From: Escherichia phage fd
Sequence record: NC_025824.1
Length of the DNA stretch: 6,408 bases
Reading direction: 5' to 3' (one strand)
Shown one piece after another: positions 1-6,408 of the stretch (its first letter is position 1; every line of letters begins with the position of its first letter). The position numbers and the translations under genes are program-made. The notes beneath the pieces were generated by a model. That model searched no databases and was not told the origin of the DNA. It saw only the letters and a program-made list of their open reading frames with translations.

Positions 1-831
1 AACGCTACTACCATTAGTAGAATTGATGCCACCTTTTCAGCTCGCGCCCCAAATGAAAATATAGCTAAACAGGTTATTGACCATTTGCGAAATGTATCTA
101 ATGGTCAAACTAAATCTACTCGTTCGCAGAATTGGGAATCAACTGTTACATGGAATGAAACTTCCAGACACCGTACTTTAGTTGCATATTTAAAACATGT
201 TGAACTACAGCACCAGATTCAGCAATTAAGCTCTAAGCCATCCGCAAAAATGACCTCTTATCAAAAGGAGCAATTAAAGGTACTGTCTAATCCTGACCTG
301 TTGGAATTTGCTTCCGGTCTGGTTCGCTTTGAGGCTCGAATTGAAACGCGATATTTGAAGTCTTTCGGGCTTCCTCTTAATCTTTTTGATGCAATTCGCT
401 TTGCTTCTGACTATAATAGACAGGGTAAAGACCTGATTTTTGATTTATGGTCATTCTCGTTTTCTGAACTGTTTAAAGCATTTGAGGGGGATTCAATGAA
501 TATTTATGACGATTCCGCAGTATTGGACGCTATCCAGTCTAAACATTTTACAATTACCCCCTCTGGCAAAACTTCCTTTGCAAAAGCCTCTCGCTATTTT
601 GGTTTCTATCGTCGTCTGGTTAATGAGGGTTATGATAGTGTTGCTCTTACCATGCCTCGTAATTCCTTTTGGCGTTATGTATCTGCATTAGTTGAGTGTG
701 GTATTCCTAAATCTCAATTGATGAATCTTTCCACCTGTAATAATGTTGTTCCGTTAGTTCGTTTTATTAACGTAGATTTTTCCTCCCAACGTCCTGACTG
801 GTATAATGAGCCAGTTCTTAAAATCGCATAA
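1..831 (+). CDS. II: Replication initiation endonuclease gpII, 3' portion (CDS wraps across the window ends; 5' portion at 6007..6408)
   Basis: Open frame in phase 1 from base 1 to the TAA at 829..831. The ORF track's 85..831 is the same frame begun at an internal TTG. Frame is continuous with 6007..6408 if the window is circular, giving 1233 nt = 410 aa, the known size of Ff gpII. Sequence recognised as Ff gene II. Confidence 0.93.
   Translation, partial: NATTISRIDATFSARAPNENIAKQVIDHLRNVSNGQTKSTRSQNWESTVTWNETSRHRTLVAYLKHVELQHQIQQLSSKPSAKMTSYQKEQLKVLSNPDLLEFASGLVRFEARIETRYLKSFGLPLNLFDAIRFASDYNRQGKDLIFDLWSFSFSELFKAFEGDSMNIYDDSAVLDAIQSKHFTITPSGKTSFAKASRYFGFYRRLVNEGYDSVALTMPRNSFWRYVSALVECGIPKSQLMNLSTCNNVVPLVRFINVDFSSQRPDWYNEPVLKIA
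496..831 (+). CDS. X: gpX, in-frame internal restart within gene II (identical to the C-terminal 111 aa of gpII); replication regulator
   Basis: ATG at 496..498 is in the gene II frame and shares its stop at 829..831 (336 nt, 111 aa). Product begins MNIYDDSAVLDAIQSK. Established Ff gene X architecture. Confidence 0.85.
   Translation: MNIYDDSAVLDAIQSKHFTITPSGKTSFAKASRYFGFYRRLVNEGYDSVALTMPRNSFWRYVSALVECGIPKSQLMNLSTCNNVVPLVRFINVDFSSQRPDWYNEPVLKIA
799..807 (+). promoter_or_regulatory. Candidate extended -10 promoter element (TGgTATAAT) upstream of gene V
   Basis: TG at 799..800 and TATAAT at 802..807, about 35 nt upstream of the gene V ATG. No good -35 hexamer seen. Ff phages are known to have a promoter in front of gene V, but the exact placement here is my inference. 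Confidence 0.35.
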
Positions 832-842
832 GGTAATTCAAA

Positions 843-1106
843 ATGATTAAAGTTGAAATTAAACCGTCTCAAGCGCAATTTACTACCCGTTCTGGTGTTT
901 CTCGTCAGGGCAAGCCTTATTCACTGAATGAGCAGCTTTGTTACGTTGATTTGGGTAATGAATATCCGGTGCTTGTCAAGATTACTCTCGACGAAGGTCA
1001 GCCAGCGTATGCGCCTGGTCTGTACACCGTGCATCTGTCCTCGTTCAAAGTTGGTCAGTTCGGTTCTCTTATGATTGACCGTCTGCGCCTCGTTCCGGCT
1101 AAGTAA
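843..1106 (+). CDS. V: gpV, single-stranded DNA-binding protein (87 aa)
   Basis: ORF 843..1106, product MIKVEIKPSQAQFTTRSGVSRQGKPYSLNEQLCYVDLGNEY..., recognised as Ff gene V protein. Shine-Dalgarno-like AAGGT at 830..834. Confidence 0.97.
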   Translation: MIKVEIKPSQAQFTTRSGVSRQGKPYSLNEQLCYVDLGNEYPVLVKITLDEGQPAYAPGLYTVHLSSFKVGQFGSLMIDRLRLVPAK

Positions 1107-1107
1107 C

Positions 1108-1209
1108 ATGGAGCAGGTCGCGGATTTCGACACAATTTATCAGGCGATGATACAAATCTCCGTTGTACTTTGTTTCGCGCTTGGTATAATCGCTGGGGGT
1201 CAAAGATGA
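1108..1209 (+). CDS. VII: gpVII, minor coat protein at the virion tip that emerges first (33 aa)
   Basis: ATG at 1108, one base after the gene V stop (TAA 1104..1106). Translates to MEQVADFDTIYQAMIQISVVLCFALGIIAGGQR, stop TGA at 1207..1209. Too short for the ORF track; recognised as Ff gene VII. Confidence 0.9.
   Translation: MEQVADFDTIYQAMIQISVVLCFALGIIAGGQR
1163..1190 (+). promoter_or_regulatory. Candidate sigma70 promoter inside gene VII, driving gene IX/VIII transcription
   Basis: TTGTAC at 1163..1168, 16-nt spacer, perfect TATAAT at 1185..1190. Ff phages are known to have a strong promoter upstream of gene VIII; assigning it to these bases is inference from the motif. Confidence 0.5.
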
Positions 1210-1304
1210 GTGTTTTAGTGTATTCTTTCGCCTCTTTCGTTTTAGGTTGGTGCCTTCGTAGTGGCATTACGTATTTTACCCGTTTAATGGAAACTTCCTC
1301 ATGA
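1206..1304 (+). CDS. IX: gpIX, minor coat protein at the same virion tip as gpVII (32 aa)
   Basis: ATG at 1206..1208 overlaps the gene VII stop as ATGA. Translates to MSVLVYSFASFVLGWCLRSGITYFTRLMETSS, stop TGA at 1302..1304. Too short for the ORF track; recognised as Ff gene IX. Confidence 0.9.
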   Translation: MSVLVYSFASFVLGWCLRSGITYFTRLMETSS

Positions 1305-1522
1305 AAAAGTCTTTAGTCCTCAAAGCCTCCGTAGCCGTTGCTACCCTCGTTCCGATGCTGTCTTTCGCTGCTGAGGGTGACGATCCCGCAAAAGCGGCCT
1401 TTGACTCCCTGCAAGCCTCAGCGACCGAATATATCGGTTATGCGTGGGCGATGGTTGTTGTCATTGTCGGCGCAACTATCGGTATCAAGCTGTTTAAGAA
1501 ATTCACCTCGAAAGCAAGCTGA
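1301..1522 (+). CDS. VIII: gpVIII, major coat protein precursor (73 aa procoat; 23-aa signal peptide, 50-aa mature protein)
   Basis: ATG at 1301 overlaps the gene IX stop as ATGA. Product MKKSLVLKASVAVATLVPMLSFA|AEGDDPAKAAFDSLQASATEYIGYAWAMVVVIVGATIGIKLFKKFTSKAS. Mature residue 12 is Asp, as in fd/f1 (M13 has Asn). Confidence 0.98.
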   Translation: MKKSLVLKASVAVATLVPMLSFAAEGDDPAKAAFDSLQASATEYIGYAWAMVVVIVGATIGIKLFKKFTSKAS

Positions 1523-1537
1523 TAAACCGATACAATT

Positions 1538-1565
1538 AAAGGCTCCTTTTGGAGCCTTTTTTTTT
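1538..1565 (+). terminator. Rho-independent terminator after gene VIII
   Basis: Stem aaaggctcc (1538..1546), loop tttt, stem ggagccttt (1551..1559), followed by a T-run through 1565. Sits between gene VIII and gene III, matching the known Ff central terminator. Confidence 0.85.
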
Positions 1566-1578
1566 GGAGATTTTCAAC

Positions 1579-2853
1579 GTGAAAAAATTATTATTCGCAA
1601 TTCCTTTAGTTGTTCCTTTCTATTCTCACTCCGCTGAAACTGTTGAAAGTTGTTTAGCAAAACCTCATACAGAAAATTCATTTACTAACGTCTGGAAAGA
1701 CGACAAAACTTTAGATCGTTACGCTAACTATGAGGGCTGTCTGTGGAATGCTACAGGCGTTGTGGTTTGTACTGGTGACGAAACTCAGTGTTACGGTACA
1801 TGGGTTCCTATTGGGCTTGCTATCCCTGAAAATGAGGGTGGTGGCTCTGAGGGTGGCGGTTCTGAGGGTGGCGGTTCTGAGGGTGGCGGTACTAAACCTC
1901 CTGAGTACGGTGATACACCTATTCCGGGCTATACTTATATCAACCCTCTCGACGGCACTTATCCGCCTGGTACTGAGCAAAACCCCGCTAATCCTAATCC
2001 TTCTCTTGAGGAGTCTCAGCCTCTTAATACTTTCATGTTTCAGAATAATAGGTTCCGAAATAGGCAGGGTGCATTAACTGTTTATACGGGCACTGTTACT
2101 CAAGGCACTGACCCCGTTAAAACTTATTACCAGTACACTCCTGTATCATCAAAAGCCATGTATGACGCTTACTGGAACGGTAAATTCAGAGACTGCGCTT
2201 TCCATTCTGGCTTTAATGAGGATCCATTCGTTTGTGAATATCAAGGCCAATCGTCTGACCTGCCTCAACCTCCTGTCAATGCTGGCGGCGGCTCTGGTGG
2301 TGGTTCTGGTGGCGGCTCTGAGGGTGGCGGCTCTGAGGGTGGCGGTTCTGAGGGTGGCGGCTCTGAGGGTGGCGGTTCCGGTGGCGGCTCCGGTTCCGGT
2401 GATTTTGATTATGAAAAAATGGCAAACGCTAATAAGGGGGCTATGACCGAAAATGCCGATGAAAACGCGCTACAGTCTGACGCTAAAGGCAAACTTGATT
2501 CTGTCGCTACTGATTACGGTGCTGCTATCGATGGTTTCATTGGTGACGTTTCCGGCCTTGCTAATGGTAATGGTGCTACTGGTGATTTTGCTGGCTCTAA
2601 TTCCCAAATGGCTCAAGTCGGTGACGGTGATAATTCACCTTTAATGAATAATTTCCGTCAATATTTACCTTCTTTGCCTCAGTCGGTTGAATGTCGCCCT
2701 TATGTCTTTGGCGCTGGTAAACCATATGAATTTTCTATTGATTGTGACAAAATAAACTTATTCCGTGGTGTCTTTGCGTTTCTTTTATATGTTGCCACCT
2801 TTATGTATGTATTTTCGACGTTTGCTAACATACTGCGTAATAAGGAGTCTTAA
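1579..2853 (+). CDS. III: gpIII, minor coat / receptor-binding adsorption protein (424 aa including an 18-aa signal peptide); N1, N2 and C-terminal domains separated by glycine-rich linkers
   Basis: GTG start at 1579 just after the terminator, with GGAG at 1566..1569. Product [18 protein letters not shown]|[42 protein letters not shown]..., stop TAA at 2851..2853. The ORF track's 1549 start is a TTG inside the terminator hairpin. No foreign insert after the signal peptide. Confidence 0.96.
1834..1890 (+). repeat. Tandem 15-bp repeat encoding the (EGGGS)n first glycine-rich linker of gpIII
   Basis: gagggtggtggctct / gagggtggcggttct / gagggtggcggttct / gagggtggcggt read directly; encodes [19 protein letters not shown]. 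Confidence 0.95.
2284..2400 (+). repeat. Tandem 12-15-bp repeat encoding the GGGS/EGGGS second glycine-rich linker of gpIII
   Basis: About nine consecutive units (ggcggcggctct, ggtggtggttct, gagggtggcggctct ...) encoding [39 protein letters not shown]. Confidence 0.95.
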
Positions 2854-2855
2854 TC

Positions 2856-3194
2856 ATGCCAGTTCTTTTGGGTATTCCGTTATTATTGCGTTTCCTCGGT
2901 TTCCTTCTGGTAACTTTGTTCGGCTATCTGCTTACTTTCCTTAAAAAGGGCTTCGGTAAGATAGCTATTGCTATTTCATTGTTTCTTGCTCTTATTATTG
3001 GGCTTAACTCAATTCTTGTGGGTTATCTCTCTGATATTAGCGCACAATTACCCTCTGATTTTGTTCAGGGCGTTCAGTTAATTCTCCCGTCTAATGCGCT
3101 TCCCTGTTTTTATGTTATTCTCTCTGTAAAGGCTGCTATTTTCATTTTTGACGTTAAACAAAAAATCGTTTCTTATTTGGATTGGGATAAATAA
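2856..3194 (+). CDS. VI: gpVI, minor coat protein at the gpIII end of the virion (112 aa)
   Basis: ATG at 2856, two bases after the gene III stop; AAGGAG at 2842..2847. Hydrophobic product MPVLLGIPLLLRFLGFLLVTLFGYLL..., stop TAA at 3192..3194. Recognised as Ff gene VI. Confidence 0.96.
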   Translation: MPVLLGIPLLLRFLGFLLVTLFGYLLTFLKKGFGKIAIAISLFLALIIGLNSILVGYLSDISAQLPSDFVQGVQLILPSNALPCFYVILSVKAAIFIFDVKQKIVSYLDWDK

Positions 3195-3196
3195 AT

Positions 3197-4243
3197 ATGG
3201 CTGTTTATTTTGTAACTGGCAAATTAGGCTCTGGAAAGACGCTCGTTAGCGTTGGTAAGATTCAGGATAAAATTGTAGCTGGGTGCAAAATAGCAACTAA
3301 TCTTGATTTAAGGCTTCAAAACCTCCCGCAAGTCGGGAGGTTCGCTAAAACGCCTCGCGTTCTTAGAATACCGGATAAGCCTTCTATTTCTGATTTGCTT
3401 GCTATTGGTCGTGGTAATGATTCCTACGACGAAAATAAAAACGGTTTGCTTGTTCTTGATGAATGCGGTACTTGGTTTAATACCCGTTCATGGAATGACA
3501 AGGAAAGACAGCCGATTATTGATTGGTTTCTTCATGCTCGTAAATTGGGATGGGATATTATTTTTCTTGTTCAGGATTTATCTATTGTTGATAAACAGGC
3601 GCGTTCTGCATTAGCTGAACACGTTGTTTATTGTCGCCGTCTGGACAGAATTACTTTACCCTTTGTCGGCACTTTATATTCTCTTGTTACTGGCTCAAAA
3701 ATGCCTCTGCCTAAATTACATGTTGGTGTTGTTAAATATGGTGATTCTCAATTAAGCCCTACTGTTGAGCGTTGGCTTTATACTGGTAAGAATTTATATA
3801 ACGCATATGACACTAAACAGGCTTTTTCCAGTAATTATGATTCAGGTGTTTATTCATATTTAACCCCTTATTTATCACACGGTCGGTATTTCAAACCATT
3901 AAATTTAGGTCAGAAGATGAAATTAACTAAAATATATTTGAAAAAGTTTTCTCGCGTTCTTTGTCTTGCGATAGGATTTGCATCAGCATTTACATATAGT
4001 TATATAACCCAACCTAAGCCGGAGGTTAAAAAGGTAGTCTCTCAGACCTATGATTTTGATAAATTCACTATTGACTCTTCTCAGCGTCTTAATCTAAGCT
4101 ATCGCTATGTTTTCAAGGATTCTAAGGGAAAATTAATTAATAGCGACGATTTACAGAAGCAAGGTTATTCCATCACATATATTGATTTATGTACTGTTTC
4201 AATTAAAAAAGGTAATTCAAATGAAATTGTTAAATGTAATTAA
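3197..4243 (+). CDS. I: gpI, inner-membrane assembly ATPase (348 aa) with an N-terminal Walker A motif
   Basis: ORF 3197..4243. P-loop GKLGSGKT at residues 8-15 (about 3218..3241). Recognised as Ff gene I. Confidence 0.96.
   Translation: MAVYFVTGKLGSGKTLVSVGKIQDKIVAGCKIATNLDLRLQNLPQVGRFAKTPRVLRIPDKPSISDLLAIGRGNDSYDENKNGLLVLDECGTWFNTRSWNDKERQPIIDWFLHARKLGWDIIFLVQDLSIVDKQARSALAEHVVYCRRLDRITLPFVGTLYSLVTGSKMPLPKLHVGVVKYGDSQLSPTVERWLYTGKNLYNAYDTKQAFSSNYDSGVYSYLTPYLSHGRYFKPLNLGQKMKLTKIYLKKFSRVLCLAIGFASAFTYSYITQPKPEVKKVVSQTYDFDKFTIDSSQRLNLSYRYVFKDSKGKLINSDDLQKQGYSITYIDLCTVSIKKGNSNEIVKCN
3917..4243 (+). CDS. XI: gpXI, in-frame internal restart within gene I (C-terminal 108 aa of gpI); assembly protein
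   Basis: ATG at 3917..3919 is in the gene I frame and shares its stop. Product begins MKLTKIYLKKFSRVLCLAIGFASAF... and is 108 aa, the known size of gpXI. Confidence 0.8.
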   Translation: MKLTKIYLKKFSRVLCLAIGFASAFTYSYITQPKPEVKKVVSQTYDFDKFTIDSSQRLNLSYRYVFKDSKGKLINSDDLQKQGYSITYIDLCTVSIKKGNSNEIVKCN

Positions 4244-5501
4244 TTTTGTTTTCTTGATGTTTGTTTCATCATCTTCTTTTGCTCAAGTAATTGAAATGAA
4301 TAATTCGCCTCTGCGCGATTTCGTGACTTGGTATTCAAAGCAAACAGGTGAATCTGTTATTGTCTCACCTGATGTTAAAGGTACAGTGACTGTATATTCC
4401 TCTGACGTTAAGCCTGAAAATTTACGCAATTTCTTTATCTCTGTTTTACGTGCTAATAATTTTGATATGGTTGGCTCAATTCCTTCCATAATTCAGAAAT
4501 ATAACCCAAATAGTCAGGATTATATTGATGAATTGCCATCATCTGATATTCAGGAATATGATGATAATTCCGCTCCTTCTGGTGGTTTCTTTGTTCCGCA
4601 AAATGATAATGTTACTCAAACATTTAAAATTAATAACGTTCGCGCAAAGGATTTAATAAGGGTTGTAGAATTGTTTGTTAAATCTAATACATCTAAATCC
4701 TCAAATGTATTATCTGTTGATGGTTCTAACTTATTAGTAGTTAGCGCCCCTAAAGATATTTTAGATAACCTTCCGCAATTTCTTTCTACTGTTGATTTGC
4801 CAACTGACCAGATATTGATTGAAGGATTAATTTTCGAGGTTCAGCAAGGTGATGCTTTAGATTTTTCCTTTGCTGCTGGCTCTCAGCGCGGCACTGTTGC
4901 TGGTGGTGTTAATACTGACCGTCTAACCTCTGTTTTATCTTCTGCGGGTGGTTCGTTCGGTATTTTTAACGGCGATGTTTTAGGGCTATCAGTTCGCGCA
5001 TTAAAGACTAATAGCCATTCAAAAATATTGTCTGTGCCTCGTATTCTTACGCTTTCAGGTCAGAAGGGTTCTATTTCTGTTGGCCAGAATGTCCCTTTTA
5101 TTACTGGTCGTGTAACTGGTGAATCTGCCAATGTAAATAATCCATTTCAGACGGTTGAGCGTCAAAATGTTGGTATTTCTATGAGTGTTTTTCCCGTTGC
5201 AATGGCTGGCGGTAATATTGTTTTAGATATAACCAGTAAGGCCGATAGTTTGAGTTCTTCTACTCAGGCAAGTGATGTTATTACTAATCAAAGAAGTATT
5301 GCGACAACGGTTAATTTGCGTGATGGTCAGACTCTTTTGCTCGGTGGCCTCACTGATTACAAAAACACTTCTCAAGATTCTGGTGTGCCGTTCCTGTCTA
5401 AAATCCCTTTAATCGGCCTCCTGTTTAGCTCCCGTTCTGATTCTAACGAGGAAAGCACGTTGTACGTGCTCGTCAAAGCAACCATAGTACGCGCCCTGTA
5501 G
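4221..5501 (+). CDS. IV: gpIV, outer-membrane secretin for phage export (426 aa including a 21-aa signal peptide)
   Basis: ATG at 4221 preceded by AAGGT (4209..4213). Signal peptide MKLLNVINFVFLMFVSSSSFA then QVIEMNNSPLRDF... The ORF track's 4182 start is an upstream in-frame ATG inside gene I. Start overlaps the end of gene I by 23 nt; stop TAG at 5499..5501. Recognised as Ff gene IV. Confidence 0.95.
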   Translation: MKLLNVINFVFLMFVSSSSFAQVIEMNNSPLRDFVTWYSKQTGESVIVSPDVKGTVTVYSSDVKPENLRNFFISVLRANNFDMVGSIPSIIQKYNPNSQDYIDELPSSDIQEYDDNSAPSGGFFVPQNDNVTQTFKINNVRAKDLIRVVELFVKSNTSKSSNVLSVDGSNLLVVSAPKDILDNLPQFLSTVDLPTDQILIEGLIFEVQQGDALDFSFAAGSQRGTVAGGVNTDRLTSVLSSAGGSFGIFNGDVLGLSVRALKTNSHSKILSVPRILTLSGQKGSISVGQNVPFITGRVTGESANVNNPFQTVERQNVGISMSVFPVAMAGGNIVLDITSKADSLSSSTQASDVITNQRSIATTVNLRDGQTLLLGGLTDYKNTSQDSGVPFLSKIPLIGLLFSSRSDSNEESTLYVLVKATIVRAL

Positions 5502-5553
5502 CGGCGCATTAAGCGCGGCGGGTGTGGTGGTTACGCGCAGCGTGACCGCTACA
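5497..5553 (+). other. Packaging signal (morphogenetic signal) hairpin A, at the gene IV / intergenic boundary
   Basis: Left arm tgtagcgg (5497..5504) pairs perfectly with right arm ccgctaca (5546..5553), with further imperfect GC-rich pairing inside. Position immediately after gene IV matches the known Ff packaging hairpin. Exact limits approximate. Confidence 0.7.
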
Positions 5554-5599
5554 CTTGCCAGCGCCCTAGCGCCCGCTCCTTTCGCTTTCTTCCCTTCCT

Positions 5600-5760
5600 T
5601 TCTCGCCACGTTCTCCGGCTTTCCCCGTCAAGCTCTAAATCGGGGGATCCCTTTAGGGTTCCGATTTAGTGCTTTACGGCACCTCGACCTCCAAAAACTT
5701 GATTTGGGTGATGGTTCACGTAGTGGGCCATCGCCCTGATAGACGGTTTTTCGCCCTTTG
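5600..5760 (+). other. Minus-strand (complementary-strand) replication origin region, hairpins B and C (approximate limits)
   Basis: Inverted repeat ctaaatcgg (5635..5643) / ccgatttag (5661..5669) with inner ccct/aggg pairing forms hairpin B; more dyad symmetry follows. Location between the packaging signal and the plus origin matches the known Ff minus origin. A GGATCC (BamHI) site lies at 5645..5650 inside hairpin B. Confidence 0.6.
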
Positions 5761-5765
5761 ACGTT

Positions 5766-5810
5766 GGAGTCCACGTTCTTTAATAGTGGACTCTTGTTCC
5801 AAACTGGAAC
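5766..5810 (+). other. Plus-strand origin core: gpII recognition/nicking hairpin D and adjacent hairpin E
   Basis: Stem gagtccac (5767..5774) / gtggactc (5786..5793) around loop gttctttaata; the known gpII nick lies in the loop within cttt/aata (about 5781/5782). It is followed by the palindrome gttccaaactggaac (5796..5810). Sequence recognised as the Ff/f1 origin. Confidence 0.85.
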
Positions 5811-5934
5811 AACACTCACAACTAACTCGGCCTATTCTTTTGATTTATAAGGATTTTTGTCATTTTCTGCTTACTGGTTAAAAAATAAGCTGATTTAACA
5901 AATATTTAACGCGAAATTTAACAAAACATTAACG

Positions 5935-5963
5935 TTTACAATTTAAATATTTGCTTATACAAT
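5935..5963 (+). promoter_or_regulatory. Candidate sigma70 promoter for gene II
   Basis: TTTACA at 5935..5940, 17-nt spacer, TACAAT at 5958..5963, about 44 nt upstream of the gene II ATG. Consistent with the known promoter in front of gene II; exact assignment is inference from the motif. Confidence 0.5.
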
Positions 5964-6006
5964 CATCCTGTTTTTGGGGCTTTTCTGATTATCAACCGGG
6001 GTACAT

Positions 6007-6408
6007 ATGATTGACATGCTAGTTTTACGATTACCGTTCATCGATTCTCTTGTTTGCTCCAGACTTTCAGGTAATGACCTGATAGCCTTTGTAGACCTCT
6101 CAAAAATAGCTACCCTCTCCGGCATGAATTTATCAGCTAGAACGGTTGAATATCATATTGACGGTGATTTGACTGTCTCCGGCCTTTCTCACCCGTTTGA
6201 ATCTTTGCCTACTCATTACTCCGGCATTGCATTTAAAATATATGAGGGTTCTAAAAATTTTTATCCCTGCGTTGAAATTAAGGCTTCACCAGCAAAAGTA
6301 TTACAGGGTCATAATGTTTTTGGTACAACCGATTTAGCTTTATGCTCTGAGGCTTTATTGCTTAATTTTGCTAACTCTCTGCCTTGCTTGTACGATTTAT
6401 TGGATGTT
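6007..6408 (+). CDS. II: Replication initiation endonuclease gpII, 5' portion (runs off the window end and continues in phase at 1..831)
   Basis: ATG at 6007, open through 6408 (402 nt = 134 codons, no stop). Translates to MIDMLVLRLPFIDSLVCSRLSGNDLIAFVDLSKIATLSGMNLSARTVEYHIDGDLTVSG... Recognised as the gpII N-terminus. Confidence 0.92.
   Translation, partial: MIDMLVLRLPFIDSLVCSRLSGNDLIAFVDLSKIATLSGMNLSARTVEYHIDGDLTVSGLSHPFESLPTHYSGIAFKIYEGSKNFYPCVEIKASPAKVLQGHNVFGTTDLALCSEALLLNFANSLPCLYDLLDV

Follow-up and report, generated by a model that had tools for sequence, protein, structure and literature searches.

The DNA analysed here, all 6,408 nucleotides (nt) of sequence record NC_025824.1 and hereafter called the window, is almost certainly the complete circular genome of Escherichia phage fd (Inoviridae, genus Inovirus), with the packaged or + strand as written and all genes in the + sense. 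Phage fd, whose sequence dates from 1978 and on which phage display was built, is a member of the Ff group, and the window aligns with other Ff genomes colinearly and end to end over 100% of its length. Nucleotide identity is 99.2% with Copypasta and FfIris, the closest records compared (53 differences each), 97.2% with f1 (181 differences) and 97.0% with M13 (193 differences). The latter two counts agree with the divergence of approximately 3% that reportedly separates fd from f1 and M13. The Ff set aligned to the window spans 90.7-99.2% identity, FfLavender being 9% divergent. Whole-genome nucleotide identity above 95%, which is the ICTV's species criterion (Inoviridae profile, PMC8491893), thus holds for both M13 and f1 over the full length and places the window in the species Inovirus M13.

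Within this species, the protein sequences point to fd itself. The product of gene IV (pIV) is identical to UniProt P03664 (G4P_BPFD), a sequence recorded for phage fd only, and pI is identical to G1P_BPFD, whereas pVIII exactly matches the sequence named CAPSD_BPF1, which carries fd/f1 accessions. The length of 6408 nt, as compared with 6407 nt in M13 and f1, is due to one extra base at position 3195, in the junction between genes VI and I; this base is absent from f1, M13, FfViolet and FfAmethyst. It is this length, together with the fd-specific pIV and pI, that identifies the phage as fd. The window begins and ends at the conventional numbering origin of Ff phages, so that gene II spans the junction, and its gene order, II(X)-V-VII-IX-VIII-III-VI-I(XI)-IV followed by a single large intergenic region, is that of the Ff group. 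Every defining feature of this group that can be tested on sequence was found in the window. As in a positive-sense ssDNA phage transcribed in one direction, all protein-coding genes have the polarity of the packaged strand, and the complement carries no conserved gene. The phages f1, M13, FfIris, FfLilac, FfAmethyst, FfViolet, FfLavender and Copypasta share with fd the same 11 genes, as well as their order, overlaps and strand and the intergenic origin region. The exact match of its proteins to those of fd also suggests a filamentous virion with circular + sense single-stranded DNA (ssDNA) and infection via the F pilus; the host fields of the closest isolates name F+ E. coli.

A first-pass annotation of the window, made from its letters alone, had placed every supported gene on the + strand, a claim that is borne out by 11 of the 11 Ff genes, all of which read on this strand with no internal stops. 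They are the following, with lengths in amino acids (aa) and the Pfam families matched.

6007..6408 + 1..831, + strand: gene II, replication initiator/nickase, 410 aa; circular open reading frame (ORF) 6007..7239 with ATG start and one stop; Phage_CRI and G2P_X_C.
496-831, + strand: gene X, 111 aa, nested in gene II in the same frame; G2P_X_C, E = 2.9e-36.
843..1106, + strand: gene V, ssDNA-binding protein, 87 aa; Phage_DNA_bind, E = 1.3e-42.
1108..1209, + strand: gene VII, minor coat protein, 33 aa; Inovirus_G7P_2, E = 1.3e-21.
1206..1304, + strand: gene IX, minor coat protein, 32 aa; every Ff record annotates it.
1301..1522, + strand: gene VIII, major coat protein precursor, 73 aa; Phage_coatGP8, E = 8.3e-28.
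1579..2853, + strand: gene III, attachment protein, 424 aa, GTG start; Phage_Coat_A, E = 6.1e-66.
2856..3194, + strand: gene VI, minor coat protein, 112 aa; DUF5455, E = 4.2e-35.
3197..4243, + strand: gene I, assembly ATPase, 348 aa; Zot, E = 2.1e-53.
3917-4243, + strand: gene XI, 108 aa, nested in gene I in the same frame; from the ORF translation.
4221..5501, + strand: gene IV, outer-membrane secretin, 426 aa; Secretin, E = 4.5e-44.

Together, these genes span 91.0% of the 6408 bases, leaving 577 non-coding bases and a sole long non-coding stretch at 5502-6006. Gene IX overlaps both gene VII and gene VIII by 4 nt, while the overlap of gene IV with gene I amounts to 23 nt; gene II is annotated across the junction of the circle in M13 and f1, too. 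The gathering cut-offs of Pfam were passed by nine of the ten gene products queried, with E values between 1e-21 and 1e-66, and no Pfam model matched the 32-aa pIX.

The pattern of sequence variation confirms that these frames are the ones in use. Across eight aligned Ff genomes, 565 of the 673 variable coding sites fall at codon position 3 of the + strand genes, the variable fraction being 0.044, 0.012 and 0.289 at positions 1, 2 and 3, respectively. This concentration at position 3 indicates purifying selection acting in exactly these + frames. Moreover, the coding sequences (CDS) annotated in the deposited records of M13, f1, FfIris, FfLavender, FfViolet, FfAmethyst and Copypasta lie on the + strand only, and the same is true of the annotated genomes of IKe, I2-2, If1 and PEar6. 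The + strand ORFs considered beyond these genes (1338-1637, 1730-2077, 2162-2446, 3399-3614 and two intergenic CDS called in the Copypasta record) were all rejected, and most of them are broken in other Ff genomes. The frame at 2162-2446 is free of stops but has lost its ATG in FfViolet and FfAmethyst. The frame at 1338-1637 (99 aa with a TTG start, in the third frame, running from gene VIII through the terminator into the beginning of gene III) is open in 8/8 Ff genomes, but 18 nucleotide changes produce 15 amino acid changes in FfLavender and it is thus not under coding constraint.

The first-pass annotation had also judged the + strand to be T-rich by eye, proposing base composition and third-position bias as a check, and the impression proved correct on both counts. 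The + strand contains 24.6% A, 20.2% C, 20.7% G and 34.5% T, with an AT skew of -0.167 (binomial p = 9e-25) and a GC skew of +0.011 (p = 0.57), and T exceeds A in 65 of 65 sliding windows of 500 nt. T occupies 25, 31 and 48% of codon positions 1, 2 and 3 (30.5% at position 2 to the first decimal), reaches 56% at fourfold sites and makes up 33% of the non-coding DNA, in which A is 23% (577 bases); in 14 of the 15 codon families with a T-ending member, it is this codon that occurs most often. The excess is therefore concentrated at synonymous sites, which is the NNT bias of positive-sense ssDNA phages. This codon bias has been attributed to the deamination of C to T, a reaction some 100 times faster in ssDNA, acting together with purifying selection on the first two codon positions (PMC3278643, PMC4032129). 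We infer that the T excess in fd is the same signature of ssDNA coliphages, usually attributed to C to T deamination of the single-stranded strand and filtered by purifying selection, with selection on codon choice probably contributing as well.

Several observations weigh against deamination as the whole cause of this excess. Fourfold sites consist of 56% T, 19% C, 14% A and 11% G; here C exceeds G, with GC skew near zero, whereas deamination of + strand cytosine alone should leave G in excess over C. The substitution spectrum, obtained by parsimony from 185 third-position changes in the clade of fd, f1 and M13 and polarised with FfLavender as a 9%-divergent outgroup, a procedure that is biased and here has small counts, shows C>T at 0.133 per site versus G>A at 0.068, the direction predicted by deamination; however, T>C (0.096 per site) also exceeds A>G (0.048) twofold, again on small counts, and the equilibrium T/(T+C) implied by this biased parsimony spectrum is about 0.58 as against 0.79 observed. 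Furthermore, the inoviruses Pf1 (AT skew +0.007) and If1 (AT skew just -0.023), which are ssDNA phages with one-strand coding as in fd, have little or no T excess. The composition of the fourfold sites suggests a general avoidance of purines on the packaged strand, in place of simple cytosine deamination, as the source of the T excess in Ff phages, and the imperfect fit of the spectrum leaves room either for such avoidance or for selection on codon choice, as argued in PMC4032129.

A broader alternative holds that both features are unrelated to single-strandedness. The polarity would then reflect an operon-like layout in which promoters act in cascade and terminators are few, and the T excess would be the product of selection, through T-ending codons favoured for translation and the T-rich second positions of hydrophobic membrane proteins, not of damage to ssDNA. 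We consider this explanation rather unlikely. Phage T7, which has double-stranded DNA (dsDNA), is equally strict in coding on one strand, so polarity is not specific to ssDNA phages; the 30.5% of T at codon position 2 fits the many membrane proteins encoded; Pf1 is an ssDNA inovirus and yet lacks the T excess; and neither the fourfold C>G nor the near-zero GC skew is accounted for by deamination alone. Additionally, it is argued in PMC4032129 that adaptation of ssDNA phages also proceeds via 'U-friendly' codon families. Codon selection, however, has no reach over the 577 non-coding bases, in which T exceeds A as well, and T7, despite having the same host and the same polarity, shows A in excess of T (AT skew +0.05) with T at only 31% of third positions (T3). 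Conversely, the unrelated ssDNA coliphage phiX174 has the same bias as fd (T 31%, T3 51%), and the per-site rate of C>T on the + strand is twice that of G>A. The question touches the cause of the composition only, leaving the identity of the window and its polarity unchanged.

The comparison with phiX174 (Microviridae) is instructive in other respects, for this phage resembles fd in having a circular ssDNA genome with overlapping genes, all of them on the packaged strand, and its rolling-circle replication likewise starts where the + strand is nicked; unlike fd, it has unrelated proteins and an icosahedral virion, is lytic and belongs to a different viral kingdom. Closer to fd, the phages IKe, I2-2, PEar6 and If1 (Lineavirus/Infulavirus), which use pili other than that of fd, have an fd-like gene order with all genes on one strand, even if only patches of their genomes align with fd, at 67-69% nucleotide identity. 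IKe, I2-2 and PEar6 also have a T excess as in fd (T 33-34%, AT skew about -0.15), while If1 differs from fd by extra ORFs. In the temperate or integrative inoviruses (VFJ, CTXphi-like and Pf-like), the core modules for replication, structure and assembly are on the + strand, as in fd, but the inovirus Vibrio phage VFJ, unlike fd, carries the regulator genes orf135 and orf154 on the minus strand. This is in line with the statement that, in integrative inoviruses, the (-) strand is usually the one from which the repressor is expressed (PMC8491893).

Strict polarity thus characterises Ff-like, non-integrating phages and not filamentous ssDNA phages as a whole. The statement in the first-pass annotation that such polarity is expected for an ssDNA phage can thus be retained in the sense that the two are consistent, but not as a diagnostic, given the one-stranded T7 and the minus-strand genes of VFJ; since T7 is one-stranded in coding and yet has dsDNA, polarity alone says nothing on strandedness. 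A more specific signal of ssDNA is a coding strand whose synonymous sites show a strong skew of T over A, limited in turn by its absence in GC-rich inoviruses such as Pf1. For fd, the arrangement of genes on one strand, the T-rich viral strand, the origin hairpins and the nick site are textbook knowledge, the polarity having been known since the 1970s, and nothing in these features is new.

The minus strand was examined for ORFs of at least 30 aa, the longest of which is the following.

1711-1980, - strand: longest ORF with a start codon (TTG), 89 aa, antisense to the part of gene III that encodes the glycine-rich linker; not a gene.

The longest stretch from stop to stop, 120 codons and also antisense to this linker, compares with 99.7 +/- 19.1 codons in shuffled sequence, and when the codons of the genes were shuffled no antisense open stretch exceeded expectation, the smallest fraction reaching the observed length being 0.09 (gene III). 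The ten longest minus-strand ORFs gave a best E of 0.026 against Pfam and PHROG, every match lying far under the cut-off. Most nucleotide differences among the eight Ff genomes alter the amino acid when they are read in the minus frames: 35 changes lead to 32 amino acid changes in FfLavender for 1711-1980, which also has a premature stop in Copypasta, and 17 lead to 15 for 921-1133. Five of the nine longest minus-strand ORFs (1711-1980, 4283-4489, 5409-5609, 5628-5819 and 5223-5375) are broken by a stop, a frameshift or loss of the start codon in at least one Ff genome. Antisense translations do produce matches of low E value in IKe, PEar6, I2-2 and If1, but these align because the sense genes are conserved and, mirroring that conservation, were rejected as evidence for genes; all antisense alignments longer than 50 aa are interrupted by stops in at least one of these relatives, and those free of stops are shorter and partial. 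No minus-strand reading frame is under protein-coding constraint. The initial description of the minus-strand ORFs as short and unrecognisable therefore stands, and the supported, conserved minus-strand gene that was named in advance as its possible refutation was sought by length, family and conservation without any being found.

A minus-sense product might nevertheless exist in the form of a micro-protein of <30 aa, which a scan of ORFs of at least 30 aa would miss, or of an antisense non-coding RNA templated by the + strand of the replicative form; we deem this very improbable. Five minus-strand ORFs (921-1133, 1055-1267, 5955-6125, 714-878 and 2470-2616) are open in 8/8 Ff genomes, but they sit in the most conserved + genes and have accumulated few substitutions, mostly changing amino acids in the minus frame. 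Two of them, 1055-1267 and 2470-2616, have no aligning minus-strand counterpart in IKe, PEar6, I2-2 and If1, and the antisense alignments to IKe and PEar6 usually contain stops, with the exception of a stop-free, partial match of 49 aa between 921-1133 and PEar6. The genetics of Ff phages, pursued over decades, is known to have yielded 11 genes, each of them in the + sense.

The signals for transcription can be considered in the same light. Two of them stand out on the + strand.

1538..1569, + strand: terminator-like hairpin and T-run after gene VIII, AAAGGCTCC-TTTT-GGAGCCTTT followed by TTTTTTT; 9-bp stem with 5 G-C pairs.
5935..5963, + strand: promoter-like TTTACA-17-TACAAT, 44 nt upstream of the ATG of gene II; a consensus match only, joint best at 10/12.

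The terminator after gene VIII reads on the + strand only, because the complement has just three T past the stem. All six terminator-like sites in the window (6/6) lie on the + strand, a count to be read with the proviso that the T-run required by the scan itself favours the T-rich strand. Promoter-like sites are much less telling: both 10/12 matches to the consensus are on the + strand, but the total of 18 sites, nine per strand, is within chance (14.3 +/- 3.8 expected), and we rejected the consensus scan as a guide to the polarity of transcription. The nine promoter-like matches on the minus strand, which might be taken in favour of a minus-sense product, lose their weight with this chance-level total and with the presence of 0 terminator-like sites on that strand. 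The search of both strands with Rfam at E <= 1 returned no family at threshold, only four matches of 19-25 bits when 34-70 are needed, all of them centred on the terminator hairpin of gene VIII. A literature search within one paper library found no strand-specific Ff transcriptome and no study of Ff antisense RNA.

The intergenic region gives evidence of another kind on the strand that is packaged. We folded the + strand as DNA between 5495 and 5830 and compared it with its complement. The + strand has a predicted fold of -71.4 kcal/mol (z = -6.6) comprising five hairpins, A-E, versus -63.7 kcal/mol (z = -3.8) for the complement; a stronger + fold would be expected if G-T pairs had been selected in a strand that exists in single-stranded form. 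The hairpins are listed below with functions following the classical intergenic map of Ff phages, on which we take A to be the packaging signal, B and C the minus-strand origin and D and E the core plus-strand origin.

5500..5577, + strand: hairpin A, putative packaging (morphogenetic) signal, an imperfect hairpin of 78 nt; predicted fold, function from identity with Ff.
5625-5679, + strand: hairpin B, putative minus-strand origin; predicted fold, function from identity with Ff.
5693-5751, + strand: hairpin C, putative minus-strand origin; predicted fold, function from identity with Ff.
5767-5793, + strand: hairpin D, putative core plus-strand origin with the nick in its loop; from the fold and the sequence GTTCTTTAATAGTGGACTCTTGTTCCAAACTGGAACA.
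5794-5812, + strand: hairpin E, putative core plus-strand origin; predicted fold.

The nick sequence of the gene II protein, GTTCTTT/AATAGTGG (= GTTCTTT/AATAGTGGACTCTTGTTCCAAACTGGAACA), is found on the + strand at 5775-5790, with the nick between T5781 and A5782. In M13 numbering, the nick lies at 5780T/5781A (PMC5405960), and the offset of +1 in fd results from its extra base at 3195. With a candidate packaging hairpin, candidate minus-strand origin hairpins and a plus-strand origin with its nick sequence, the region appears to have the complete Ff organisation. Equivalents of the fd hairpins are annotated in the IKe record, as packaging-signal and origin hairpins, and in that of I2-2, as a morphogenetic signal. 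The view that the features of the window fit a genome packaged as the + strand thus finds support in the identity with fd, in the nick sequence and in the + fold. The latter two point independently to the + strand as the one that exists single-stranded; the assignment of the packaged strand itself rests on identity with fd and on the description of the family.

The cycle of replication and expression is described in the literature as follows. The packaged + strand enters the cell and is recognised there by host RNA polymerase at the promoter-like hairpins B and C, with production of a short primer, after which host polymerase completes the minus strand to form the double-stranded replicative form. 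By the coding sense of the window, the minus strand of this form has to serve as the template of all messenger RNAs (mRNAs). The gene II protein nicks the + strand at T5781/A5782, within the loop of hairpin D, initiating rolling-circle synthesis that displaces new + strands; gene V protein coats and sequesters these strands, which are then packaged via the signal in hairpin A and exported through the machinery of pI, pXI and pIV.

In this scheme, the first-pass claim that the genome is transcribed only from the complementary strand calls for a distinction. Since each of the eleven proteins is encoded in the + sense, mRNAs must be templated by the strand complementary to it in the replicative form, and for mRNAs the claim would hold, as read from the gene map. 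It fails for the primer at the minus-strand origin, a short RNA for which host RNA polymerase uses the + strand as template. The minus-strand origin of M13 is referred to as a promoter-like template for host RNA polymerase (PMC7948647), and Inoviridae are described as having circular positive-sense ssDNA genomes with mRNAs transcribed from the replicative form (PMC8491893). The activity of RNA polymerase on the + strand (PMC7948647) is also a point in favour of further minus-sense products; there is at most a slight chance that, besides the origin primer, fd makes a short minus-sense regulatory RNA or a micro-protein of <30 aa from its replicative form, or else that its T excess is a pyrimidine bias other than deamination.

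It is hardly conceivable that the window is instead a vector or phagemid derivative made in the laboratory, such as M13mp or fd-tet, for, although Ff sequences are widespread as vectors and a segment of the f1 origin is present in unrelated 'phage' records, the window is colinear with wild isolates at 6408 nt and has no insertion of more than one base relative to other Ff genomes (the extra bases in FfLavender number four in total), its intergenic region 5502-6006 is uninterrupted, with no lacZ-alpha, tet, bla or polylinker, and its pI and pIV are the wild-type fd entries. We rejected this reading for the lack of any insert in the window.

Some observations concern the records with which the window was compared. 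Copies of 456 nt of the Ff origin (window 5489-5944, ~95% identical) are present in three unannotated records, named Lambdavirus lambda (OR474059), Listeria phage LM 4-14-1 (3074 bp) and Escherichia phage ECO95 1-6-1 (2111 bp); the copies in all three most likely represent contamination with the f1 origin of a phagemid or cloning vector. The Copypasta record (OR791786) annotates as 'hypothetical protein' two intergenic CDS on the + strand, 6154-6366 and 6338..100, equivalent to window 5527-5739 and 5711-5881. The former has stops in f1 and FfLavender, the latter a stop in the fd window and most Ff genomes, and both look like spurious calls over the packaging signal and origins. The same record is linearised with its first base at window 5782, exactly on the 3' side of the nick made by the gene II protein, maybe by deliberate re-orientation or because the end of the assembly derives from nicked or rolling-circle molecules. 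In FfViolet, gene IV has lost 19 nt close to its 3' end (window 5404-5422), and pIV is annotated with 415 aa instead of 426 and with a different C-terminus, which is surprising in an essential secretin, if the sequence is correct. Finally, gene IV of PEar6 is annotated in two pieces, pIVa (4845-5636) and pIVb (5678-6154), where IKe has a single ORF; this may be either a split secretin or a sequencing frameshift.

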